A stretch of DNA of 63,912 nt from Candidatus Poseidoniales archaeon (GCA_012959435.1 DUDF01000145.1:1-63912), one strand, 5' to 3'. Shown: positions 37,862 to 63,912, counted from the first letter of the stretch. The notes: generated by a model not told the origin, from the sequence alone. Program-made: numbers and translations.

Positions 37862-38170
37862 TGCGAGGGAGTAGGGAGTAAGCCCCTTTTTGTTCGCCTT
37901 TCGGTTAGCTGCATTCAACTTAGCGTCCTACCCGTTCCTCTTCCATACGCGTCAACAGAACTGTTTGGACTTGCACCAGCGCGGTTGCTCGTCTCAGCCG
38001 GTAACAGACAATCTCCTCCTTTCGGATTCACAGTACTCGACTGCACCGGTTCGTTGCTTAAGCAGAGCCAGCCCTTCCGGACTCCCGAAATGAATCGGGG
38101 CACCTGCATGGTGGAGAGGGGACTTTCCTCAGTGTCGTACACTGTCAGCAGCCCTCCTACTCCCTCGCAA
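37862..38170 (-). ncRNA. rnpB: RNase P RNA (archaeal type-A-like)
   Basis: Minus strand has CR-I GAGGAAAGTCCC (38119-38130) and a CR-V-like ACAAAAAGGGGCTTAC (GGCTTAC at 37878-37884). The terminal P1 helix pairs gcgagggagtagg... with ...cctactccctcgc. About 310 nt, GC-rich relative to its flanks. Confidence 0.8.
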
Positions 38171-38268: not shown

Positions 38269-41200
38269 TTAACTTGATGGGGGGGGCTGTCCACCTGATT
38301 GATAATATTCTTGATATTGTTGTTGGTAGGCTTGCCACTGAGCCTCAGTCCACTGCTGAGATTGCTGTCCCGTAGGTTGCGGAACAGGTTGTTGAGAGGG
38401 CTGTTGTTGGGATGGATATTGTTGATTATTCACCTGTGGGACTTGTTGCTGATGATATCCAACCTGTTCTTGACCCCAAGTTTGCTGATTCTGATAATCA
38501 GGGGTTGGTGATTGAACTCCAGCCATTGCTTCAGATGGGCTAGCATAAGTGGATTCTGTTTTCTTATCATCTTCCCACTCATCGTCCCAATCATCCGTGC
38601 CGTCAAGAGACGATTCTGAGGAACCACCTGATCGTAAAGCCAATGAAACGGTAAGTGTGAGAATCAGTAATAGCACTGCAATAATGACTAACCAAGACAT
38701 TGGAACACCTTCAAGCACCCCTGAAAGTGCCTCGTCGTTACCTGTCTGTTTGATATTGATATGATTTCCTTCAAGTGAACTACCATCCTCTAGTGTGATT
38801 ACGACCCATCTCTCACCTTTTGTCTCTGGAATCCAATCAATATCGTAGGTTAATCTCTCATCGACCGGCACAACAACAGATATTGGAACTGGAGTTAGTG
38901 AACGATTCGCTCCATCTCTACCCACTTCATAAGCAAAGAATTTCATGCTGCCAGTAGCAAAACCGCTGTTTCTGAATTCTATCGTAACCATTGTTGTCTG
39001 GTCAATTTCAAGGTCACCACTTCGAGAATATGTGACTTGAGTTAATTCAATATCTGCCGCAAGGTGCTCAATATCCCATGATGCAAATGGTGAAGAACCG
39101 CTATTGAACAGTGTAGAAGACTGCATTCCATTACCTGCTAAGTCACTTCCTTTAACCCAAACTGACAAGACTAATGCATCCGAGAAAGAATCTTCAGGTA
39201 GACGACTTGCAACATCAAAAGTTGCGGAAGCAGCGATTGATTGCCCAACAGGTGAGCCAGACACATTCATAGGAGATGAACCTTCAATCAATGCCGCACC
39301 ATTTAGCGAACTAGCATAAGAAACTTTGAAGAAAAGTTGCAGAGAATCAAGATTGAGTTTTTCTTGTTCAGAAAGTCGTAACTCAATTCTAACTTCAGAT
39401 AAATCTGCTAAGAGAATATGTGTCCCTTCACGAGGTGCATCAATAGATACGGGCAAAGGTGGATTACTATCAACCTCTATCCAAAACAAGGTTTCGGTCG
39501 GATCAGTTGCATCTACAGCTTCTGGAGGAAGCCCTGTCAATTCAAAGGAAAGAGCGTGGCTTTTTGATTCGCTCGGCGCAGTAAGTTGAGACAAAAAGTA
39601 TCCATTTATGGTGGAAGTTACTAACCTCTGACCATCAAGTAGAATTGACACATCAAACGGTAAAGTAGGTGTTAAGCCAGTTTCCACAAAAGTCACTTGC
39701 CCTGAGATGTTTAATCCTGTACCTGGTTTCACCCAAACGCTTTGGTCAATTATTGTCCCACCTTCAGATTCCAAAAGTATGCTATCTGATGAAATTGCTA
39801 AATTAGGTGAGTAGCGCCATCGCAATTGTGGCAATTCTAACCATGATTCTGCTCCCCCCCTATCTCTAACAGTAATCGCAGGAGCACGCCGGAGGTCATT
39901 CTCAAGAGAAAGCCCCCAATCAAGAGTGAATTCCATGCGTAATTCCAATTCACTGCTGAAAGGTGTGATTTCACCAGTACGTGCATGGATATGACATGAA
40001 CTAACAATCAGATATTGTCCGGTGCCGTTGCATCGGTTTGTTGTCGCATTCCAAAGAACTTCTAATGAGTCAACAATTGAATTACTTGCGAGTTGAAATT
40101 GAACATAATCCAAATCAGCCAAACCATTTGGTTCATCGAATGGAATCACAATTTCATACAGTATTGCCGGATGTAACCAACTATGGTCACCATCAACGAA
40201 TCCACCTTGCCCAACTATCCAAGGCGCACCATCTTGTGCCAATTGGTAAGTGAATAGTTGCTCATCTACTCCTGGTCCACCACCACGAGTGATTTCATTT
40301 CCAGCAGCATCCGAACCACTGATGTAGCCAGCAACTATTCCCCCGTTAGGCCCATCAGTATCATCAAATGAAAATGAGTAATTACCTTGTGCTTGACTCG
40401 TGTTTGATGGACTCTGCATTGTATATTCAATGAATTCAGTGGCATTTGGATTACCATCAGCATTGAAATCATCAACCCAATCCCTCCATAACATCAGAGA
40501 AAGATCGTCTGGCAGTACTGGCCTATCATATATCTCTACCTTGATTAATTGGTTCAAAGAATGTTCTAGGTGGTCAAATTTACGAATGTTCTGATTAATG
40601 GCCATTGGCGCTAATGAGTCAATTTCATATGTCCTATTCAATGTGATTGAAGATGTATTTTCTTGTTGATACAAAGTGTAGGCATCTATCCTGTATTCTA
40701 CTGGTTGTGAACTAAGAGGTGTGTTTAGGCTAAAATCTATAGAGCCATTAACTAATGATGTGCTATTAGCAACTACCACACCATTTTCAAACACCCTAAC
40801 CGCCACATCTCCGGCTCTTGGGGCGAGCCATCGGTCAATTCCAGGGAACCCAAGGTCAACACTAATTGTAATAGGTGAGTTTGATTGAAGATACTGCCTA
40901 TTTGTAGGAATAGGATCACCGTGTTGGTTGTACATTTCCCACGAGACGACCTCCACATCATTCTCAATGGCCAAGTTTTGCCCAACTCCGAAAGCTTGCA
41001 ACTTCGGAACACTTCTTCTACCATCAATCAACACCAATCTGACTTTCATCGTCATACTTGGATCATCATCCCAGGATGCATTCAATCGGAACCTCATCAT
41101 ACTATCAACATCAGAACCGTTGATATTCATTTCACAACCATCACCCTGCTTCCACTGAACCATCTCTGCATCAACTGAACCGAGAACAATTGCTAGGGTG

Positions 41201-43527
41201 CCATCATTCTGACAAAGCATCCTGACTTGATGCATTGTTCCAATCAAATCCATCTGGACAGCGGCAACCGTTCCTGCAGGTGCAGTGTGTGTGGTACTAA
41301 CCTCAATCCATTGCCTAGATGGGGCAAGGGTAGTCGTACCATTCAAAATGGTCAACGAATCAGTGGTCATTTCATTACTATAATTTAGTGAAGTGATAGT
41401 TGCAATAAGGGAACCTGGATTACTCATTTGTACAGTAAGTGGGACAAATTTTGAGCCACCGGATATTGTACTATATGGTATCACATCATTAACAGCCCAA
41501 ACCATTCCATCCCCTGAATCATACGATAAGTAGGCGGTTGGATGGTGTACTGCTGCAATACCACCAAGTTGAACGCCACCATAATTACTAGTTACAGAAA
41601 ATACTGCTTGAACATACTCAATTCCAGTTTGAATCCCAGGAGATGGCCAAATTGATGTACTGTTTGTGAGCAAAGAATTGATGTCAATAATTTCTCCTGG
41701 CGTCATAACCACTAGGTTAACTGCACTAGTAGTACCAATTGCCCTACTCATCACTTCTGTGCCTGAAATAGTTAGGCTAGTAGAAAGATTTTCAACCCCT
41801 GAAGAAGATGGGGAAAGTGTGTAACTCATCGCATCAAGGCCATCTTTAGGTAACCAAACACCTATCTGCTTTGTACCGGATGTAGTCCAAGTAAAATCTT
41901 TCGAATAGGCACCGTCTGAAAGCCTATCTTGCCATCCCCATTTCCCAATACTAGGGTTGTCAATACTCCACTCAGTTATTCCATCTTCCCCAACATCTAT
42001 TCTTGGTAATTCAGGCATCCCGCCAGTATCAATTTGGATATCTATTTCCCTTAAGTCAGAAGATGATGAACTACCTGTCCAACGAAATTGTACTTTGTGG
42101 GAATAAGTAGACAGGGTTTGCCAGGTACCTTGAGGTGCATTAGCCCATGCGTTATCATTTATTTTCATCTGCCAAATACCAGAACCAGATGATGTTACAT
42201 CTGTCCGTATTCTTGAAATTGGCCGCCTTAATTCTAGAATTGGAGAATCAATAGTTCCACTGCCGGGGTAAGAGTTACCATCCCAATTCAGGCTTCCAGT
42301 CCACCCAGGATTTGAGTTAAATGATGACACGTATCTTCCTTGGACATGTACCCCATGAACAATTGGTGAACTAGCCCCAGTGGGCTGATTCAAATATAAT
42401 TTAATTCTTAATGTTTGGTGCTTTTCAGAGTCAATCCCACCTAAATCGTGAACATATGTGTTGATGTTCTCATAGCCCGGGATTGGCTGTTTCGAAATAC
42501 CATCAAGAATAGTCCAAGTAAGAGATGAGCCGGTTGGAACTGTTGCATCAATACTCATCAAACCATATGCGCCTTTTTGAGATTGTAATGAACCTGTGGC
42601 AGAGGGACCAAAAGCCGGAGAGGTCCAATTCGCTCCCGTTCCTAATCCAGCTCCTGCTGGTTTGAATTCAACATCATCAACATTCCAACCGGTGTATGTG
42701 ACCGAACCATCAGTTCTTCCAAGTTTGAATCGAACCTGAAGATTAGAGTTTCCATTAACATGACTTGAGATATCGTGAGACATTTGCGTCCAAGTGCTCG
42801 GGTTTACTGAACCTCCGCTCCAATCCCAAACCGTCACCCAACTCCCTTGTTGATTTTTAACATGGACTTGGGCGTCATCATAGTAATATGATTCAATACC
42901 CAAACGCTTCCAGTACTTCAATTGCCAACTACCTGAGCAAGAACTGCAATCAACAACCGGTGATGTCGCAAAATATCCTGAAGAAGGGACATTATTTGGG
43001 TAATTTCCATTGTATGTGTAAATCGCTTTGGTCCCAGCATGAACGCCACCGTTTTGACCTAGGCTTGAATCATATCCCCAATACCAACCTGTACCCATTG
43101 TCCAACCTGAAGCAGCGAATGCGGCGCTATTTGGATATTCAAAATCCCAACCAATTTCCCTTGGTTGGACCTTCATTCCTTCTGTGCCATTGAAATTAAC
43201 ACCATCCGTAATGGATCCAGACATATTCCAATCTGAAACCGAATCCCATGAAACCGACTCTGTCCGAGGTAAAATGTGGGGTCCAAGTGAAAGGCCAAGT
43301 CCCGTAACGGCATGGTCAACTGGGACTTCTAATTGCAACGCATTTGAGGTGCCATCAGGGTGACTAACCACAGAAACAGTAGTTGGTGCATTCAATCCAG
43401 TCTCCATATTTTTGACGGCACCTGGAAGAGTTGTGGGTTCAATCAACAATGGTGCCAAAGAAGATATGACAAAAATTAGGAAAAGAAATGCGGCGGGAAG
43501 ACAGGGCCTTGGACTACGCCGCATCAT
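38269..43527 (-). CDS. Giant (1752 aa) secreted surface protein with a single C-terminal TM and a Q/P-rich cytoplasmic tail
   Basis: Signal peptide MMRRSPRPCLPAAFLFLIFVISSLAP. N-terminal MAM / choice-of-anchor-J-like module (...QVRFKLGRTDGSVTYTGWNVDDVEF). TM WLVIIAVLLLILTLTVSLAL. Tail QQQVPQVNNQQYPSQQQPSQQPVPQPTGQQSQQW... Confidence 0.85.
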   Translation of the reverse strand: MMRRSPRPCLPAAFLFLIFVISSLAPLLIEPTTLPGAVKNMETGLNAPTTVSVVSHPDGTSNALQLEVPVDHAVTGLGLSLGPHILPRTESVSWDSVSDWNMSGSITDGVNFNGTEGMKVQPREIGWDFEYPNSAAFAASGWTMGTGWYWGYDSSLGQNGGVHAGTKAIYTYNGNYPNNVPSSGYFATSPVVDCSSCSGSWQLKYWKRLGIESYYYDDAQVHVKNQQGSWVTVWDWSGGSVNPSTWTQMSHDISSHVNGNSNLQVRFKLGRTDGSVTYTGWNVDDVEFKPAGAGLGTGANWTSPAFGPSATGSLQSQKGAYGLMSIDATVPTGSSLTWTILDGISKQPIPGYENINTYVHDLGGIDSEKHQTLRIKLYLNQPTGASSPIVHGVHVQGRYVSSFNSNPGWTGSLNWDGNSYPGSGTIDSPILELRRPISRIRTDVTSSGSGIWQMKINDNAWANAPQGTWQTLSTYSHKVQFRWTGSSSSSDLREIDIQIDTGGMPELPRIDVGEDGITEWSIDNPSIGKWGWQDRLSDGAYSKDFTWTTSGTKQIGVWLPKDGLDAMSYTLSPSSSGVENLSTSLTISGTEVMSRAIGTTSAVNLVVMTPGEIIDINSLLTNSTSIWPSPGIQTGIEYVQAVFSVTSNYGGVQLGGIAAVHHPTAYLSYDSGDGMVWAVNDVIPYSTISGGSKFVPLTVQMSNPGSLIATITSLNYSNEMTTDSLTILNGTTTLAPSRQWIEVSTTHTAPAGTVAAVQMDLIGTMHQVRMLCQNDGTLAIVLGSVDAEMVQWKQGDGCEMNINGSDVDSMMRFRLNASWDDDPSMTMKVRLVLIDGRRSVPKLQAFGVGQNLAIENDVEVVSWEMYNQHGDPIPTNRQYLQSNSPITISVDLGFPGIDRWLAPRAGDVAVRVFENGVVVANSTSLVNGSIDFSLNTPLSSQPVEYRIDAYTLYQQENTSSITLNRTYEIDSLAPMAINQNIRKFDHLEHSLNQLIKVEIYDRPVLPDDLSLMLWRDWVDDFNADGNPNATEFIEYTMQSPSNTSQAQGNYSFSFDDTDGPNGGIVAGYISGSDAAGNEITRGGGPGVDEQLFTYQLAQDGAPWIVGQGGFVDGDHSWLHPAILYEIVIPFDEPNGLADLDYVQFQLASNSIVDSLEVLWNATTNRCNGTGQYLIVSSCHIHARTGEITPFSSELELRMEFTLDWGLSLENDLRRAPAITVRDRGGAESWLELPQLRWRYSPNLAISSDSILLESEGGTIIDQSVWVKPGTGLNISGQVTFVETGLTPTLPFDVSILLDGQRLVTSTINGYFLSQLTAPSESKSHALSFELTGLPPEAVDATDPTETLFWIEVDSNPPLPVSIDAPREGTHILLADLSEVRIELRLSEQEKLNLDSLQLFFKVSYASSLNGAALIEGSSPMNVSGSPVGQSIAASATFDVASRLPEDSFSDALVLSVWVKGSDLAGNGMQSSTLFNSGSSPFASWDIEHLAADIELTQVTYSRSGDLEIDQTTMVTIEFRNSGFATGSMKFFAYEVGRDGANRSLTPVPISVVVPVDERLTYDIDWIPETKGERWVVITLEDGSSLEGNHINIKQTGNDEALSGVLEGVPMSWLVIIAVLLLILTLTVSLALRSGGSSESSLDGTDDWDDEWEDDKKTESTYASPSEAMAGVQSPTPDYQNQQTWGQEQVGYHQQQVPQVNNQQYPSQQQPSQQPVPQPTGQQSQQWTEAQWQAYQQQYQEYYQSGGQPPPSS

Positions 43528-48450: not shown

Positions 48451-48525
48451 GGGCCCGTGGGTTAGCCTGGCCTATGCTTGGGCGTTTGGGACGCTTAGAC
48501 TCCGGTTCAAATCCGGACGGGCCCA
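48451..48525 (+). tRNA. tRNA-Pro (anticodon UGG)
   Basis: GGGCCCG...GGGCG-TTTGGGA-CGCTT...TCCGG-TTCAAAT-CCGGA-CGGGCCC-A. G37 follows the anticodon. The D-stem is imperfect. Confidence 0.85.
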
Positions 48526-59009: not shown

Positions 59010-59804
59010 ATGGACCAGTATCAGCATCTACTGAAACTCATCCTTCAAGAGGGTGTAGAGCGGGATGATAGAACCGGAACAGGCACAATTTCTGTGTTTG
59101 GCCATCAATCAAGATATGACCTTCGAAGAGGGTTTCCTGCAATTACCACCAAGCGGGTTCATTGGCCTAGCATCATTCACGAACTTCTTTGGTTTTTATC
59201 CGGCGACACAAACACACGCTACTTGACTGACAACAACGTTCGAATTTGGAATGAGTGGGCTGATGAAAATGGTGACCTTGGTCCGGTTTACGGCAAGCAA
59301 TGGCGTGCTTGGGAAGGAAATGATGGCCGAGTTGTTGACCAAATCAGAGAGGCAGTAGCGCAACTACGAGAAAACCCTGGCTCACGTAGAATCATTGTAT
59401 CTGCTTGGAATGTTGGGGAATTAGATGATATGGCACTAATGCCTTGTCACGCATTCTTCCAGTTCTATGTAGCCAATGGCGAATTATCTTGTCAACTTTA
59501 TCAGCGCAGTGCGGACGTATTCCTTGGAGTACCTTTCAACATCTCTTCATACAGTTTACTGACTTGTATGATGGCACAAGTTTGTGGTTTGAAACCCGGG
59601 GATTTCATTCACACTATTGGGGACGCTCACCTTTACCTAAATCACCTTGAGCAAGCAAGGGAACAGGTGGGAAGAGTACCACTAGAATTACCTCGCCTAC
59701 AACTCAATCCAGAGTGTACTGAAATTGATGATTTTTCTTATGATGATATTGAAATTGTGGATTATAATCACCATCCACATATTACTGCTCCAATTAGCGT
59801 ATGA
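59010..59804 (+). CDS. thyA: Thymidylate synthase (ThyA)
   Basis: 264 aa. [23 protein letters not shown] (catalytic Cys) and DAHLYLNH. Confidence 0.95.
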
Positions 59805-59814
59805 GGTGACACAG

Positions 59815-60315
59815 ATGAAGTTAGGAATGATTGTAGCAATGGATGAAGATGGAGTGATCGGACGTGACGGTGTCATGCCATGGAATCTTCCGGCAGATTT
59901 GGCTCACTTCAAACGCTCAACCATGGGTTGTCCGATAATCATGGGAAGAAAAACCTACGAGGCTATTGGAAGGCCATTACCTGGTCGATTAAACGTGGTT
60001 CTCACCCGTGATATGGAATGGTTTGTTGAAGGGATTGAAATTGTTCACGATATTACAGATGCCCTAGAGGTTTCAGCAATAGATGCAGGAATAGATGGTT
60101 GGGTTTGGGTTATTGGAGGTGGTGCAATTTATGCAACCATGCTCAATCGCTGTGACCGATTACTAGTAACCCATGTTAAGGCAAAAGTTGGTGGTGGAGA
60201 TACTTGGTTCCCTTACATCAACTGGGATGACTGGGAGGAAATCACCCGTGAAACAAGAAAGGCAGATGAGAAAAATCCGTTTGATATGGCATTTGCCACC
60301 TATGAAAGACCTTAA
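59815..60315 (+). CDS. folA: Dihydrofolate reductase
   Basis: MIVAMDEDGVIGRDGVMPWNLPADLAHFKRSTMGCPIIMGRKTYEAIGRPLPGR and VIGGGAIY. Confidence 0.9.
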   Translation: MKLGMIVAMDEDGVIGRDGVMPWNLPADLAHFKRSTMGCPIIMGRKTYEAIGRPLPGRLNVVLTRDMEWFVEGIEIVHDITDALEVSAIDAGIDGWVWVIGGGAIYATMLNRCDRLLVTHVKAKVGGGDTWFPYINWDDWEEITRETRKADEKNPFDMAFATYERP

Positions 60316-60326
60316 TTGGTGTTAGA

Positions 60327-61097
60327 ATGGAAATGAATCAACTCGTAGTTACGAACTGTGTTGAATTCATGGAAAAGATGGATGAAAACTCAGTTGACCT
60401 TACAGTCACTTCTCCACCATATGACAATCTTCGAGATTACAAAGGGTATTCATTTGATTTTGAAGGAATAGCAAAGGGGTTGTACCGTGTCACTAAGGAA
60501 GGTGGCGTTGTAGTTTGGGTTGTGGGAGACCGAACCCACAAAGGTAATCGTTCACTGACTAGTTTTCGACAAGCATTATATTTTCAAGAATTGGGATTTA
60601 ATGTACACGATATTATGATTTATCGCAAAAAAAATACACCATTTATGCGTTCTAACGCCTATACAAACTGTTACGAATTCATGCATGTATTCACCAAAGG
60701 AAAGCCAAATGCATTCAATCCCCTTACAGACCAAACCGTTCGCCAAGGTATGGAAATGATGCCTTTTAACAAAGGGGCTGACGGAGTAAACAACAAGGCA
60801 TTAGGGAAATTGAATGACGCAAAAACACGTGCAAATATTTGGGATTATGCTGTTGGGATGCATGGGACTACTAGCGATAAAATCGCATTCCAACATCCAG
60901 CTGTTTTCCCTGAAAAATTGGCTGAAGACCATATCCTCTCATGGACTAATGAAGGTGATTTGGTTTTTGACCCGATGTGTGGTTCAGGGACCACCCCTAA
61001 GATGGCTGTAAAACATGGGCGTAATTACATTGGAACTGACATTTCCGATGAATACATTGAGATTGCAAAGGAAAGAGTTAGTTCTATTCAGAAATGA
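60327..61097 (+). CDS. Beta-class N4/N6 DNA methyltransferase (PF01555-like); the SPPY catalytic motif suggests N4-cytosine specificity
   Basis: Motif IV TSPPY precedes motif I FDPMCGSGTT (beta-class order). HPAVFPEKL is present. No adjacent nuclease ORF is recognisable. Confidence 0.9.
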   Translation: MEMNQLVVTNCVEFMEKMDENSVDLTVTSPPYDNLRDYKGYSFDFEGIAKGLYRVTKEGGVVVWVVGDRTHKGNRSLTSFRQALYFQELGFNVHDIMIYRKKNTPFMRSNAYTNCYEFMHVFTKGKPNAFNPLTDQTVRQGMEMMPFNKGADGVNNKALGKLNDAKTRANIWDYAVGMHGTTSDKIAFQHPAVFPEKLAEDHILSWTNEGDLVFDPMCGSGTTPKMAVKHGRNYIGTDISDEYIEIAKERVSSIQK

Positions 61098-61187
61098 ATG
61101 GGATTTGCGTGGGCCCTTTCATTCGCCAATTCTGAATCAATGGGTGTTATGCACCAACCCTTTGCTTCTATGTTAAACAATTTGAAC
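61092..61187 (+). repeat. Island repeat copy A (overlaps the methyltransferase stop codon)
   Basis: aaaTGAatggg...cattcgccaattctgaatcaatgggtgttatgcaccaaccctttgcttctatgttaaacaatttgaac. 60 of 68 identical to copy B over the core, by my manual alignment. Confidence 0.8.
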
Positions 61188-61219
61188 TATACATTATGCT
61201 ATTTATTTCTATAAAGTTC

Positions 61220-62005
61220 TCAATATGTTGGAATTGAGCAATTTACTGAATTTGCATTGTCATCCCATTGTAGTGTAGTCAACTTCACTCCGTTTGGTAC
61301 ATCAAAAGTCAAATTGACCATTCCAGTGGAACCAGCAACTACCTTATCTTCTCCATCTAGATCGGGCCCTTCATAGACAATTCCGTCATCACCAATGGCC
61401 CCCCAACGGTATACATGGGTCGTAAAATCAAGAAGGCCATCGTTGGTTACTGTGACGTTGAGGGTATGGTCGCCATCATCTTCTACACTAGATGCGCTAA
61501 CATTTAGCGCCACATTGAATGATTGGACAATATCATAACTTGGGATGTCAGTTGAATCAAGGAGCCATTCATAGTCAGAATCAAGGGTCTGCGAATTAAA
61601 GTTTAATGTCGTTAGCTTCACTCCGTTAGTGACATCAAATCCAAGGGATATTTCTGTAGTGGCACCAGGACTTATTTTTGAGAGCCCCTCCTTCATGCTT
61701 CCGTAATATGGTTCGCCATCATCGCCTATTGCAGACCAGTATGACGGACTGATAAATAGATCATCGGTTCCTATGTTGCTGATAGAAATAAGGAAAATAT
61801 GGCATTCTTCAAACGAATAAATTCCACAGTAACTATCAGAGTAGGGGCCTGTAACGCCAGTAACCTCAATCACCTCAAACTGATGATTAAAAGTCATGAT
61901 TTCTGAATCGTCATTACCGTCTTCAATAACAACGACACCCCCTATGCAACCAGCAAGAAACAACACGGTAACAAGAAGTATGACACTCAACTTTCTACGA
62001 ATCAT
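61220..62005 (-). CDS. Lipoprotein with two tandem Ig-like (DUF4352-like) domains
   Basis: Lipobox LFLAGC. Internal duplication: WSAIGDDGEPYYG...ISLGFDVTNGVKLTTLNFN versus WGAIGDDGIVYEG...VNLTFDVPNGVKLTTLQWD. Confidence 0.75.
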   Translation of the reverse strand: MIRRKLSVILLVTVLFLAGCIGGVVVIEDGNDDSEIMTFNHQFEVIEVTGVTGPYSDSYCGIYSFEECHIFLISISNIGTDDLFISPSYWSAIGDDGEPYYGSMKEGLSKISPGATTEISLGFDVTNGVKLTTLNFNSQTLDSDYEWLLDSTDIPSYDIVQSFNVALNVSASSVEDDGDHTLNVTVTNDGLLDFTTHVYRWGAIGDDGIVYEGPDLDGEDKVVAGSTGMVNLTFDVPNGVKLTTLQWDDNANSVNCSIPTY

Positions 62006-62073
62006 ATTTGTCTCATAAACAATTTCTAATTAAATACTTTTATCGGATTGAACGAATCGGTCCCCTATGCTTC

Positions 62074-62229
62074 AAAATGAATGAATGGGTAGGCAATGAA
62101 AGGGCCCACTGAAAGCCCATTCATTCGCTAATTCTGAATCAAAGGGTGTTATACACTAACCCTTTGCTTCAATGCATAACAATTTGAACAGGGGTTCAAA
62201 TCCTAGTGAGTCTGGAATCTTGTGAGTTG
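62074..62229 (+). repeat. Island repeat copy B with three predicted hairpins, plus two copies of the CYTTGTGAGT motif
   Basis: Hairpins: aatgaatggg/cccattcatt (62080-62125), caaagggt/accctttg (62140-62166), atttgaac-aggg-gttcaaat (62182-62201). Then ggttcaaatcctagtgagt (62193-62211) and atcttgtgagttg (62217-62229). Confidence 0.8.
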
Positions 62230-62274
62230 AATTACAGGCGACTAATTCATTACGAAAGACGATAACACAGCCAC

Positions 62275-62583
62275 ATGGCGAACAAGAAATACGACAAAGG
62301 TAGCTGTCGAGAATTAATGCATCTATTTGTTCGTGAAAGGCCAATGTTAGAAGGCGAAATTGTTGAACTCAGTGAGATTCGTGATTGGTTTGAAATAAAT
62401 TATAGTGATATCACAGTTGGTGCGGTCGTTGCTCATGTAGCAATGATGACCGTAAATGGACAGAAAAGATACCATCATGTAGATCCAGGTGATGGGTTAG
62501 ATGACCTCTTCTACCGAGTAGATCGGGGGAAATATCGTCTGTATGTGCTAGGTGTTGATGAAGAGCCTCCGGCACGTAATTAA
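62275..62583 (+). CDS. Small hypothetical protein (102 aa), possibly wHTH-like
   Basis: ATG start. The C-terminal LFYRVDRGKYRLY resembles the wing of Mrr_N-type winged-helix domains. Weak. Confidence 0.5.
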   Translation: MANKKYDKGSCRELMHLFVRERPMLEGEIVELSEIRDWFEINYSDITVGAVVAHVAMMTVNGQKRYHHVDPGDGLDDLFYRVDRGKYRLYVLGVDEEPPARN

Positions 62584-62654
62584 TTCTACGAGAGAAATGG
62601 ACCCTTGTGCGTCTACCCTTAGAAATTTGCTGCGGGCGCTTGGATATTATTGAA

Positions 62655-62936
62655 ATGAATAAAGTACTGCGAAGTAAAACAATTACCATGAATGGTAGTA
62701 AGTTGATGCTCAACATAGGGGGGCTATGTTTACTCGGAGGACCAATTTTCTACATCTTAGGATTAAATATGGATAAATTCTACTCTTCTGATGTTGCATG
62801 GGCTCCGGCATTAGTGTTGTGGACCATAGCTTTGATCTCAGTAATTATCGGTATTGGCTTAGTGATTGCAGGGCTTCTCATGAAACCAAAAACTGATGAC
62901 GACACAATAACAGTTGATGATGCGAAGTTAAACTGA
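62655..62936 (+). CDS. Small membrane protein (93 aa)
   Basis: ATG at 62655. Hydrophobic segments LMLNIGGLCLLGGPIFYILGL and APALVLWTIALISVIIGIGLVIAGLLM. Confidence 0.5.
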   Translation: MNKVLRSKTITMNGSKLMLNIGGLCLLGGPIFYILGLNMDKFYSSDVAWAPALVLWTIALISVIIGIGLVIAGLLMKPKTDDDTITVDDAKLN

Positions 62937-62976
62937 TTGAATTACTGTTCAAATCCTTGTGAGTTTGCCCTATGAG

Positions 62977-63270
62977 TCACTTTTGTTCTTGTACTAGAAT
63001 CACCTTTTCTTTGTTAAATGAACCCACTAATATTCCTAATAGCGCAAAATACCCCACTCCAATACCTATGAGAGTAATTGCACAACCGAAGAAGCAAATC
63101 GTGTGTGCTCTGGGTATCTTTCCATCCGGGGTATCACCCAGTAGCAACTCCCCCCATGGCATATATCGAAAATCGTCAAATGCATTATCAATCATCAATA
63201 TTCCAACAATTATTCCAGCAATTGAAATTAGGAGCAAAATAATGCCAATCTTCGCTGCTGTATTCACCAT
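62977..63270 (-). CDS. Small membrane protein (97 aa)
   Basis: TM segments IGIILLLISIAGIIVGILMI and ICFFGCAITLIGIGVGYFALLGILVG. Preferred over the overlapping plus-strand ORF 62972..63337. Confidence 0.55.
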   Translation of the reverse strand: MVNTAAKIGIILLLISIAGIIVGILMIDNAFDDFRYMPWGELLLGDTPDGKIPRAHTICFFGCAITLIGIGVGYFALLGILVGSFNKEKVILVQEQK

Positions 63271-63379
63271 ATATTATTCGGAGATTCAATACTATTTCAT
63301 GATTAACCCTGCAGTTTACGGGTTCGGACCCTTGTGAGTTGACCAAGTATACTTATGAATTACATCCTCTGGCTAATTC

Positions 63380-63763
63380 ATGGATGAGGGTGTGCCAAAT
63401 TCTGCTGCCCCAGGTCCAACTTTTTTGGGTGATATGAATTCAGTAGATGATTTTCTTAGACCACAACAAAAAAACAAGTTTGTTGAGTTTTTGATTGGAT
63501 TTTTCCTTCCATTTTCATTTTTCATTATTGTATGTTTATTGGGTTTTGTATTTCTCATTATTGCCGCATTAAATGATAATCTGGGGGCTGGCGCGATGTG
63601 GGCTTTCGTGATAGTTGGATCATTATCTCTAACAGTTATACCTCTTAAAAGCATCAACATTGCTTTTAGGTCAAGTAACACAACTACAGCACGGAGATAT
63701 GGGGCGATTAGTGTTCTTATCATATCGATTATTGTAATATTTTACATCTTCTTATGGTGGTGA
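63380..63763 (+). CDS. Membrane protein (127 aa)
   Basis: Three hydrophobic segments (FLIGFFLPFSFFIIVCLLGFVFLIIAAL, MWAFVIVGSLSLTVIPL, AISVLIISIIVIFYIFLWW). AT-rich codon usage. Confidence 0.5.
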   Translation: MDEGVPNSAAPGPTFLGDMNSVDDFLRPQQKNKFVEFLIGFFLPFSFFIIVCLLGFVFLIIAALNDNLGAGAMWAFVIVGSLSLTVIPLKSINIAFRSSNTTTARRYGAISVLIISIIVIFYIFLWW

Positions 63764-63847
63764 AGGGAAAATGATATCTCCTTTTTTAAACACTCTAAGA
63801 TGATGAATTAAGTATCATGTCCTTATGATCCTGAACCCCTAAAGTAA

Positions 63848-63890
63848 AGGGCCCCCCATTCATTCATTTTGAATAAAAGGGTACCCTAGT
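63848..63890 (+). repeat. Island repeat copy C (partial, diverged; window ends soon after)
   Basis: aagggccccccattcattcattttgaataaaagggtaccct shares the blocks gggcc / cccattcattc / ttgaat.aaagggt with copies A and B. Confidence 0.5.
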
Positions 63891-63912
63891 AATCATGAAA
63901 AATCACTCACTT

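Follow-up and report, generated by a model that had tools for sequence, protein, structure and literature searches.

Integrons and CALINs (attC clusters without an integrase) are arrays of tandem one-gene units with symmetric, same-orientation repeats of ~100 nt, in which single cassettes are gained and lost between strains, with a fixed crossover at the cassette boundary, a cargo of small proteins of unknown function and no recombinase adjoining the array. Integron cassette arrays have been reported in Archaea, in a paper that makes no mention of Poseidoniales or Thermoplasmatota (PMC9668308). The window analysed here, a stretch of 63,912 nt of archaeal DNA from Poseidoniales (Marine Group II), resembles these arrays in all of the above respects in its last 2.9 kb. 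Unlike attC sites, however, the repeats have no R''/R' core sites, since the GTTAAAC found near the 3' end of most copies has no complementary RYYYAAC at the 5' end (GGGTAGGCAATG), and no single imperfect hairpin, three separate local hairpins with unpaired ends being found in place of one long end-pairing attC hairpin. Their sequence is strongly conserved, whereas attC sites are conserved in structure only; their cassette genes may point either way, several cassettes are parted by a ~10-nt motif alone, and the candidate enzyme is a serine recombinase and not an IntI tyrosine recombinase. An assignment to integron attC was rejected on core sites, hairpin and sequence-versus-structure conservation, the tandem same-orientation layout being the shared feature.

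Other described systems share different parts of this architecture. Like the res sites of Tn3/gamma-delta-type resolvases and the sites of the Hin/Gin invertases, the repeats span ~100-115 bp with three dyad-symmetric boxes (a likeness of symmetry only), a small Resolvase-domain gene has a homologous copy immediately 5' of it, a recombinase-containing segment is enclosed by copies in inverted orientation and target-site duplications are absent; in contrast to those systems there is no DDE transposase, unrelated genes are surrounded by sites scattered in direct-repeat arrays, the joint maps directly downstream of the repeat core and not demonstrably to a box, and the host is archaeal. The dif modules of Acinetobacter plasmids (pdif, XerC/XerD) likewise place gene modules between short sites with inverted arms around a spacer and re-partner between replicons with the enzyme acting in trans, but these sites measure 28 bp (11-6-11), switch orientation from one to the next and serve tyrosine recombinases, whereas the present locus has arms of 10 nt around an asymmetric spacer of 14 nt, and many of its joints are accompanied by a large conserved core. 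REP/BIME repeats and MITEs are intergenic mosaics of palindromic units with hybrid and truncated copies, many per population, that break assemblies, as here; the family described below differs in its restriction to flexible islands, its direct-orientation rule, and its lack of target-site duplications and of a nearby RAYT or transposase. Tycheposon islands of Prochlorococcus are, like the present island, flexible islands of an abundant marine plankter with cargo units between att-like repeats, there PRE1 repeats, which are tRNA-gene fragments made by tyrosine recombinases; by comparison, ARAGORN (run on the window) and Rfam found no tRNA or tRNA-like gene in the present repeats. A tRNA-fragment att site was also considered for the T-loop-like GGTTCAAATCC and rejected, as the flanks form no T stem in three copies. 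Poseidoniales are uncultured, globally abundant archaea whose genomes assemble poorly at flexible regions, and the route by which they exchange accessory genes is essentially unknown.

A modular repeat family confined to the island

The original prediction described a repeat pair, A and B, and a third partial copy, C, near the end of the window. All three are copies or fragments of an undescribed Poseidoniales-specific modular DNA element, composed of a 103-nt CORE with three dyad-symmetric boxes, a palindromic U module of ~45 nt and a short junction motif set between inverted arms of 10 nt (CAGGGGTTCA-AATCC|TTGTGAGTC-TGAACCCCTG). Box 1 reads AATGAAAGGGC-N9-GCCCATTCATT, box 2 reads TGAATCAAAGGGT-N11-ACCCTTTGCTTCA with 94% symmetry, and box 3 reads TTTGAAC-AGGG-GTTCAAA. 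Marine MAGs and metagenomes contain more than 200 copies of the CORE, spread over at least 85 distinct contexts (copies in which both flanks are distinct), which bears out the dispersed repeat family that had been raised as an alternative; 15 loci belong to ~9 Poseidoniales/Thalassarchaeaceae MAGs, with one to three strict-pattern copies per MAG, and more than 119 to metagenomes, where they gave 205 hits. Over the 85 contexts the information profile is sharply bounded by GGGTAG and TTTGAAC and amounts to 1.5-2 bits across most of the 103 nt.

Copy A (61091-61187, plus strand) corresponds to CORE positions 7-103. It begins, as claimed at the outset, within the last codons and TGA of an N4/N6 DNA methyltransferase gene (PF01555, TSPPY motif; 60327-61097, plus strand), which closes a conserved thyA-folA-MTase block and ends, at its stop codon, within the first palindromic box of the copy; A has a head-to-head hybrid as its 5' box and lacks both the junction motif and the 3' palindrome arm. 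Copy B is a full 103-nt CORE with its three dyad-symmetric boxes (GGGTAGG...CAATTTGAAC; 62087-62189, plus strand). It is preceded by a U module (62049-62086, plus strand), in which a GC box and the TTCAAAATGAA palindrome run into GGGTAG, and its 3' end leads into a segment (62183-62228, plus strand) made up of the third palindrome (TTTGAAC-AGGG-GTTCAAA), an arm end and two junction motifs, TAGTGAGTCT at 62204 and C|TTGTGAGTT at 62219/62220. That A and B are a repeat pair stands, with 88% identity over 75 nt (61113-61187 against 62115-62189), and a 25-nt core pattern occurs exactly twice in the 63.9 kb against 0.00 expected. The motif ttcaRaaatgaatggg at both copies had been read as a methyltransferase 3' end duplicated by insertion, an idea that had to be abandoned because the motif belongs to a module present at many unrelated loci and the stop codon merely sits in this common palindromic module; in sister strains the module at the stop codon is inverted.

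Copy C (63820-63887, plus strand) comprises a degenerate junction motif, the 10-nt arm TGAACCCCTA and a U module ending in GGGTACCC. Its description as a diverged partial copy was right in that C is a real part of the element, but it represents a different, accessory module and not the A/B core: C aligns in the same orientation (E=1.5e-12) to the accessory module 5' of the core in complete copies, namely junction motif, 10-nt arm and palindromic unit U, which also precedes B. The apparent inverted match of C to the flank of B is explained by U itself being a near-palindrome. C forms the right border of the island, and core genes (PI-PLC etc.) come next in one related contig (L030).

A module search of the window placed all CORE, U and junction modules within 61091-63887 and none in the remaining 61 kb, so that the CORE is restricted to the last 2.9 kb; three repeat copies lie in this island against none in 61 kb of core sequence. 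The same 2.9 kb is the lowest-GC stretch of the window, at 39.3% GC against 43.5 +/- 1.3% in equal-sized windows, none of which is as low, in agreement with the view that the island is richer in AT than the core. The repeat family, together with the fixed joint described below, provides a searchable marker for Poseidoniales flexible islands.

Single-gene cassettes and a fixed joint

The element marks fixed joints at which single genes swap between strains. All strain comparisons were made on metagenomic contigs with a crude ORF caller. Related-strain contigs have thyA-folA-MTase in common and then differ gene by gene, single genes being present, missing, inverted or re-partnered, and at least 10 arrangements lie behind one methyltransferase gene whose protein stays at least 95% identical. 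Strain comparison had been proposed at the outset as the means of deciding whether the island is cassette-variable, and it is: the genes after B differ, with single genes present or absent at repeat-associated joints, and related strains diverge from the third-palindrome/junction segment of B onward.

Between A and B lies, as originally described, one opposite-strand gene, encoding a 261-aa lipoprotein (61220-62005, minus strand; lipobox LFLAGC, weak DUF4352 match), an 88%-identical copy of which is found in another lineage (L061), at a different locus, with a CORE on one side and a U module on the other. The four small genes noted before C encode a DUF7669 winged-helix-like protein and three hydrophobic proteins. 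Cassette 1 (62214-62602, plus strand) carries the DUF7669 gene (62275-62583); three independent assemblies (L030, L032 and L110) lack this segment in full, and an identical protein occurs in at least six other contexts. Cassette 2 (62603-62946, plus strand; small membrane protein, 62655-62936) starts at the joint CC|TTGTGCGTCT, with TTGTG at 62605, and was met with three unrelated left partners and, in L016, inverted beside a CORE. Cassette 3 (62947-63319, minus strand; membrane protein gene, 62977-63270, minus strand) follows the arm remnant GTTCAAATCC and the joint TTGTGAGTTT (62957), and the same unit comes immediately after a CORE in L145. Cassette 4 (63320-63819, plus strand; membrane protein, 63380-63763), with arm remnant GGGTTCGGACC and joint C|TTGTGAGTT (63332), stands straight after B in L010, is missing from L034 and, in L050, runs opposite to the COREs, an arrangement that with L016 provides the cassette inversions. 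Other cassettes are missing or re-partnered in L010, L034, L036 and L039.

Homology between these arrangements breaks at one fixed joint, C|TTGTG(A/C/G)GT, in 31 of 36 comparisons, in each case 2-3 nt before TTGTG, and seven right-hand units were each found with two to eight unrelated left partners. The motif CYTTGTGMGT occurs three times in the window, always in the island, against 0.4 expected. Joints of the form C|TTGTGMGT lie between the small genes at 62220, 62605, 62957 and 63332; these ~10-nt joints, which the original prediction had missed, are off the edges of A, B and C, contrary to the earlier idea that those edges delimit the exchanged segments. The C|TTGTG joints fall close to the midpoint of the 34-bp palindrome (arm, spacer, arm) that adjoins the CORE on its 3' side, and a second recurrent break is the 5' edge of the CORE, |GGGTAG. 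No excised circle or empty site was observed among the metagenomic contigs compared. The island is hypervariable, and in our reading it consists of units set head to tail, each exchangeable independently of the others and most of them holding a single gene.

A related serine-recombinase unit and the proposed mechanism

Sequence comparison relates the CORE to the termini of a serine-recombinase unit at other loci. It is collinear with the ~100-bp terminal inverted repeats of this conserved small unit, which carries variable defence genes and a recombinase of 257 aa, and global alignment of the two repeats gave a z of 6.6, a score reached by none of 1000 shuffles; matches of a CORE profile HMM to the recombinase repeats were weak (E 0.3-10). 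The conserved recombinase leader starts exactly at GGGTAG in eight loci with differing left flanks, and in three of these eight arrangements an inverted copy of ~101-106 nt ends the unit 8.4-9.5 kb away. The Resolvase-domain gene lies beside the collinear family-2 repeat in eight loci, and not beside the window copies. Serine recombinases (PF00239) occur in two CORE-containing loci (L107 and L020) of ~130, a count that alone is not above chance; in L107 the recombinase gene lies just beyond two ordinary COREs, and the recombinase repeat is joined directly to the usual U module, again at GGGTAG. The repeats of the recombinase unit are inverted, as opposed to the direct repeats of the cassette arrays, and the recombinase units show no enrichment of the junction motif, which leaves the enzyme without a tie to the C|TTGTG joints. 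A tyrosine or serine recombinase sought just past the window end was not found within 7.8 kb, and the 20 mid-sized proteins of the window include no recombinase, IntI-type or other.

Gene swapping at the joints is probably the work of a site-specific recombinase encoded elsewhere in the genome. In the proposed mechanism, conservative site-specific recombination at C|TTGTG would join and excise units, turn them round and give them new partners, the enzyme would act in trans, and the CORE and U boxes would probably serve as protein-binding or accessory sites; the only candidate enzyme found is the conserved 257-aa serine recombinase. We infer that a recombinase and not another process makes the joints, which enzyme this may be, and that the dyad boxes bind it. 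We give an even chance to the island being an array of site-specifically joined cassettes of integron-like layout, for which the attC tests failed. The fuller proposal, a hitherto unrecognised cassette system analogous to integrons in Marine Group II, which ranks with the most abundant archaea of the plankton, in which single genes are captured, excised and inverted at C|TTGTG, with a res-like three-box 103-nt marker and a trans-acting serine recombinase whose unit shuttles defence systems, is tentative and on balance doubtful. The 257-aa serine recombinase and CORE/J DNA make a testable enzyme-site pair, and a cassette mechanism, if true, would be a second and mechanistically distinct cassette-capture system beside integrons, in another domain of life.

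Alternative explanations for the repeats

The best-surviving alternative, which we regard as unlikely, is that the element is a passive MITE/REP-like repeat, possibly descended from serine-recombinase-unit ends, that piles up in dispensable DNA, where turnover would proceed by homologous recombination, gene conversion or replication slippage between copies on incoming DNA with no dedicated enzyme today. Many dispersed copies are indeed ~90% alike, the build is mosaic and modular with truncated and hybrid copies as in bacterial BIMEs, the ends are related to a recombinase-bearing unit, and contigs break at the repeats. Chimeric COREs (L037 and L141/L072), in which the 5' part goes with the left flank and the 3' part with the right flank, show exchange inside the repeat of the kind expected from homologous recombination, and the 10-bp inverted pair TGAACCCCTG/CAGGGGTTCA bounds complete composites, although it is present in only three. 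The small-cassette joints, however, share only ~10 nt, too little for homologous recombination, have unrelated left partners and break at a position fixed to within 2 nt. Nor is there a target-site duplication, one conserved motif making up the 14-nt flank at different loci and L154 lacking it on one side, and close pairs are direct and not inverted (23 direct against two inverted among CORE pairs less than 2.3 kb apart, mostly enclosing one gene in either orientation). The absence of copies from 61 kb of core sequence and of a recurrent transposase among 399 neighbouring proteins weighs against a passive repeat as well. In formal comparison, the terminal structure of a MITE was rejected on the rarity of the terminal inverted pair and on the constant, sometimes one-sided 14-mer, and REP/BIME on the lack of genome-wide intergenic spread in the window.

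It is improbable that the repeats are a transcribed structured RNA or a cis-acting 3' module (bidirectional terminator, mRNA stabiliser or small RNA) with an incidental link to variable genes. Folding confirmed the three hairpins claimed for B, with z-scores of -3.0 (plus strand) and -5.0 (minus strand), and the retention of the second stem in A, whose overall fold is no better than shuffles. Copies mostly adjoin the 3' ends of genes; in 107 of 167 cases the gene downstream points towards the element, frequently no more than 30 nt away, and sequence is highly conserved across lineages, loops included. Against an RNA or terminator, the Rfam 15 covariance-model search of the repeats returned nothing at gathering score (two chance-level matches at E up to 10), the 85 copies show no covariation, with a score not above shuffles, and RNAalifold gave no consensus fold. 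One stem pair carries an uncompensated change in 26 of the 85 copies, and the outer stem of box 1 is missing in a third of them. Orientation is independent of the upstream gene (84 same, 73 opposite), none of the ~50 core intergenic regions of the window holds a copy, and the fixed joints and cassette exchange would be left unexplained.

An assembly artefact, in which chimeric joins at repeats in mixed-strain metagenomes mimic cassette polymorphism, would suit the many contigs that end in or beside repeats and the exact stretches of 30-50 nt common to CORE copies, but is very improbable, given that the joints recur across independent samples and assemblers (the 62214-62602 deletion is found in two ENA k141 assemblies and one JGI assembly), that the J joints share only ~10 nt, well under assembly k-mer sizes, and that a separate contig (L031) repeats the window arrangement at 100% identity. 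The repeat family itself accounts for the recurrent contig breaks, and it supplies the exact sequences for read-level tests of excision and integration.

Modular anatomy of the repeat family

The DNA of the window is archaeal. An RNase P RNA of archaeal type is encoded on its minus strand (37867-38164), and the contigs with which it shares sequences are Candidatus Poseidoniales/Thalassarchaeaceae (Marine Group II) MAGs and marine metagenomes, the Guaymas Basin plume among them. The island at the 3′ end directly follows a conserved thyA-folA-methyltransferase block and is AT-rich, as the original prediction held, with a GC content of 39.3% that falls below all equal-sized windows of the other 61 kb (mean 43.5%, s.d. 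1.3). The two repeat copies A and B on which that prediction was built are a true repeat, 88% identical across 75 nt, and their 25-nt core pattern has two occurrences where 0.00 are expected. The gene content described around them was also borne out: the SPPY methyltransferase gene (60327-61097) runs into A with its final codons and TGA, a single lipoprotein gene on the minus strand (61220-62005) occupies the A-B interval, and B is followed by four small genes, one encoding a DUF7669 protein (62275-62583) and three encoding hydrophobic proteins.

A MITE-like element had been named as an alternative, and the repeats do also belong to a large dispersed family. A core-pattern scan returned 15 loci from species-representative genomes and more than 119 from JGI metagenomes, and an nhmmer search with the consensus found 205 copies. 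Once instances with either flank in common were dropped, 85 copies were kept, whose information profile sharply bounds a 103-nt unit, CORE (GGGTAGGCAATGAAAGGGCCCACTGAAAGCCCATTCATTCACCGATTCTGAATCAAAGGGTGTTATGCACTAACCCTTTGCTTCAATGTTAAACAATTTGAAC), with three dyad-symmetric boxes; about one-third of CORE copies have the 5′ variant GCGTCTAYTTCGGCCC, which is without the outer arms of box 1. In complete copies CORE is preceded by U, a palindromic module of ~45 nt consisting of a GGGCCCC box, a TTCAWWWTGAA or CGTATACG palindrome and then GGGTAG, and farther 5′ by the 10-nt arm TGAACCCCTG and the junction motif J, (A)ATCC/TTGTGAGTC. On the 3′ side many copies run on with AGGG-GTTCAAATCC and a second J; read whole, this extension is CAGGGGTTCA-AATCCTTGTGAGTC-TGAACCCCTG, in which 10-nt inverted arms enclose a 14-nt asymmetric spacer.

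Every module of the window lies within 61091-63887, and none was found in the remaining 61 kb. Copy A (61091-61187, plus strand) spans positions 7-103 of CORE, its first box being a hybrid, and copy B has U, CORE (62087-62189), arm and J. The partial copy C (63820-63887) exists in the same orientation (E=1.5e-12), but it is not the diverged copy of the A/B core that had been proposed; it consists of a degenerate J, an arm and U. No Rfam family matched the element.

The central ~20 nt of U are found both ways round, TTCAAAATGA or TCATTTTGAA, between fixed GC-rich ends at many loci, a flip/flop-like pattern exemplified by window positions 62059-62086 and 63849-63879. The stop codon of the methyltransferase gene falls within a palindromic module (window 61093-61123; L162:2600-2650 and L163:10757-10836 in sister strains), and in sister strains those 40-43 nt are present reversed, so that the last methyltransferase codons (IQK*) are encoded by repeat DNA in either orientation. 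The suggestion that insertion had duplicated the 3′ end of this gene did not hold. Metagenome contigs often begin or end inside or beside CORE and U (for example L011, L012 and the 909-913-bp contigs L013 and L014), and these modules are systematic assembly breakpoints in Marine Group II genomes. Elsewhere, the commonest neighbours of CORE copies are large surface-type proteins.

Strain variation and the position of the joints

Contigs encoding an identical lipoprotein or methyltransferase have the order methyltransferase-A-lipoprotein-B in common and diverge completely just past the third palindrome of B. The window arrangement recurs at 100% identity in a separate contig (L031), and in three assemblies (L030, L032, L110) exactly the DUF7669 cassette, 62214-62602, is missing. 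It had been suggested that segments could come and go at repeat boundaries; this case supports their presence and absence, but its edges are J motifs and not repeat copies. Further contigs join the fourth small gene straight to B (L010), are without that gene (L034), continue with different DNA after the DUF7669 cassette (L036/L037 and L039/L041/L042) or carry still other sequences in the island (L005, L006, L007), and sister lineages with a methyltransferase 95-97% identical (L021, L162-L164) have wholly different genes 3′ of it. The cargo itself recurs elsewhere: the identical 102-amino-acid DUF7669 protein is found in at least six other contexts, and a lipoprotein gene 88% identical has a CORE on one side and a solo U on the other at a different locus, in another lineage.

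The intergenic TTGTG-type motifs were all collected and sorted according to the sequence on their right. Two to eight unrelated left partners were found for each of seven right-hand units, and homology breaks 2-3 nt ahead of the T in TTGTG in 31 of the 36 pairwise comparisons. The motif lies at the window cassette boundaries (62220, 62605, 62957 and 63332), and CYTTGTGMGT occurs three times in the window, always in the island, against 0.4 expected. The DUF7669 cassette ends in GAAATGGACCC and TAGTGAGTCTGG; the crossover interval is the CCT common to both flanking motifs, which adjoins the centre of the arm-spacer-arm palindrome, and departure of the cassette would give the empty joint AAATCC/TTGTGCGTCTACCC. 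Breaks also recur at the 5′ edge of CORE, immediately before GGGTAG: five loci have an identical CORE and DUF7669 cassette with unrelated DNA up to this point, and in L005 two U modules are fused head-to-head at it. Inversions also occur. The second small gene is reversed beside CORE in L016, where the joint lies in the loop of the third palindrome, and in L050 the fourth small gene is reversed relative to the COREs together with the spacer of the flanking site, as for a flipped palindromic site. The cassette reading is supported in part, as regards strain-variable units; the actual joining points are the short J motif and the 5′ edge of CORE.

Homologous recombination is unlikely at these joints because the partners are unrelated and only ~10 nt are shared, a length far below assembly k-mer sizes. 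Given this short shared sequence, the unrelated partners and the recurrence of identical joints in independent assemblies, we infer that the joints are probably products of a sequence-specific process. Neighbouring CORE pairs <2.3 kb apart on one contig are direct in 23 cases and inverted in 2 (~20 and 2 with duplicate loci removed), and most enclose a single gene in either orientation, and the four pairs with a spacing of 3.7 kb or more are all inverted and point inward. Cassette cargo is varied (membrane and secreted proteins, lipoproteins, zinc-ribbon proteins, DUF7669, a CPBP-like protease and a weak GIY-YIG match), and the DNA between inverted pairs encodes a UvrD-like giant helicase, an NYN RNase and unknowns.

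A serine recombinase with a related repeat

A recombinase had been sought just past the window end, and none is present in the 7.8 kb by which L030 extends beyond it; the genes past C in that contig are core genes (PI-PLC, metallo-beta-lactamase-fold protein, M28 peptidase, enolase-superfamily protein, aldolase and PfkB). When 399 CORE-neighbouring proteins were clustered, no transposase recurred, and the recurrent recombinases were limited to two small serine recombinases, in L107 and L020, with Resolvase and partial Recombinase domains. Their family, abundant in marine metagenomes and conserved there, is found mostly on contigs of 1-3 kb; among solved structures its closest relatives are resolvases, invertases and the catalytic domain of the TP901-1 integrase.

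At eight loci with unrelated left flanks, a conserved leader of ~260 nt starts exactly at GGGTAG, and its first ~101-106 nt return inverted 8.4-9.5 kb downstream in L173, L174 and L176-178. Between these repeats lie the recombinase and cargo that differs from case to case (Wadjet/Mks-like genes, a McrB-like AAA_5 ATPase or tiny ORFs), PIN7 often being present as well. Downstream of the recombinase come a McrB-like AAA_5 ATPase in L107 and type III restriction-modification-like genes in L181, and both contigs stop before any closing repeat. The 257-amino-acid recombinase (3349-4131 in L107, for example) belongs to a discrete Poseidoniales unit (L173:9739-18297; L174:70-9116; L176:9739-19221; L107:3089-4131; L181:93-1129), seen in at least eight chromosomal contexts, which looks like a mobile or invertible carrier of defence genes. 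Its leader (L173:9790-9990, likewise L174-L181) contains the box TTGAGGG-N12-CCCTTSCGA twice, 75-95% conserved across distant lineages; RNAalifold found no covariation support in the 260 nt, and the boxes may be protein-binding or autoregulatory sites.

CORE and the ~100-nt recombinase-unit repeat are collinear over their full length (global alignment z 6.6, with 0 of 1000 dinucleotide shuffles as high). They have in common GGGTAGGCA, ACTGAA, CCCATT and the GGG...CCCTT box, and they differ in the outer arms of box 1 (AATGAA/TTCATT against AGTGTAC/GTACTCT) with the dyad kept. In L107 an ordinary U adjoins the recombinase repeat at the same GGGTAG junction, and shortly before it come two ordinary COREs with the same orientation. 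The CORE profile HMM matches the recombinase repeats weakly, J motifs are not enriched inside recombinase units, and recombinase-bearing loci number 2 of ~130 CORE loci, alone no more than chance would give. On these grounds the serine recombinase ranks as a candidate enzyme for the cassette joints and not as an identified agent; a host XerA-type recombinase is the alternative candidate.

Competing readings and further features of the window

We give roughly an even chance to the reading in which the island is an array of cassettes undergoing site-specific recombination, with a res-like modular element as its mark and a recombinase acting in trans, possibly of this serine recombinase family. 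CORE resembles a res site in its size, its three-dyad organization and the fact that a homologue immediately precedes a Resolvase-domain gene; it differs in that no transposase is present and in that the mapped joint lies beside CORE, with no demonstration of a place inside a box. The main rival, a passive MITE/REP-like repeat rearranged by homologous recombination, would suit the dispersed family and the resemblance to MITEs and REP/BIME mosaics; the element does not have the features that define either, nor those of the dif modules it also resembles, and with the scant homology at the joints we consider this rival rather improbable.

CORE may be transcribed, and a small RNA or terminator is a less probable rival. 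The three hairpins claimed for B are predicted (z -3.0 on the plus strand, -5.0 on the minus strand), and the downstream gene frequently converges on CORE; for A taken as a whole, the predicted fold was not better than in shuffled sequences. Across the 85 copies box 2 is 94% symmetric and nearly invariant, uncompensated changes breaking one pair in 26 of them, box 1 shows pairing in just 72% of cells, covariation does not score above shuffles and RNAalifold returned no consensus structure. Orientation relative to the upstream gene is independent (84 same, 73 opposite). With pairs near-invariant or broken, no covariation and no orientation bias, CORE symmetry is better read as double-stranded DNA dyads, that is, predicted protein-binding sites, than as a selected RNA fold.

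The layout is similar to that of an integron cassette array, here without a local integrase, and CORE fails as attC on three counts, namely core sites, folding as a single hairpin and sequence variability. A Casposon-like transposon with a 14-bp target duplication was rejected, since the same conserved 14-mer recurs at all loci and may be missing on one side, as was a tRNA-fragment attachment site, GGTTCAAATCC resembling a T loop with no T stem, acceptor strand or ARAGORN match. C/D-box small RNA and archaeal origin-recognition-box motifs misfit on inspection, the sole ATG-led frame in CORE has 13 codons and is gone in the second 5′ variant, and a viral, proviral or Charybdis origin is dismissed, the four module patterns having no IMG/VR match and the 4.6-kb circles of the Charybdis paper being unrelated. 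The literature searched contains no description of the element, which is no proof of novelty.

Several other features of the window were recorded. The orphan N4/N6 methyltransferase (60327-61097) has homologues 68-79% identical, the few with named sources including Verrucomicrobiae, Chloroflexota, Woesebacteria and unclassified Euryarchaeota; in one such lineage the gene adjoins ribosomal protein genes, a neighbourhood that suggests horizontal spread of the methyltransferase gene itself. The adjacent thyA and folA ORFs overlap (59010-60315), and a single 425-amino-acid thymidylate synthase-DHFR product is called on a Guaymas contig (L006:1945-3222), which could mean that some strains have a fused bifunctional gene or that the gene calls differ. 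A 1752-amino-acid ORF (38269-43527, minus strand) directly adjoins the RNase P RNA gene. ARAGORN calls a tRNA-Pro(TGG) at 48451-48525, where the Rfam tRNA model is silent at its gathering score while finding the other three tRNAs.
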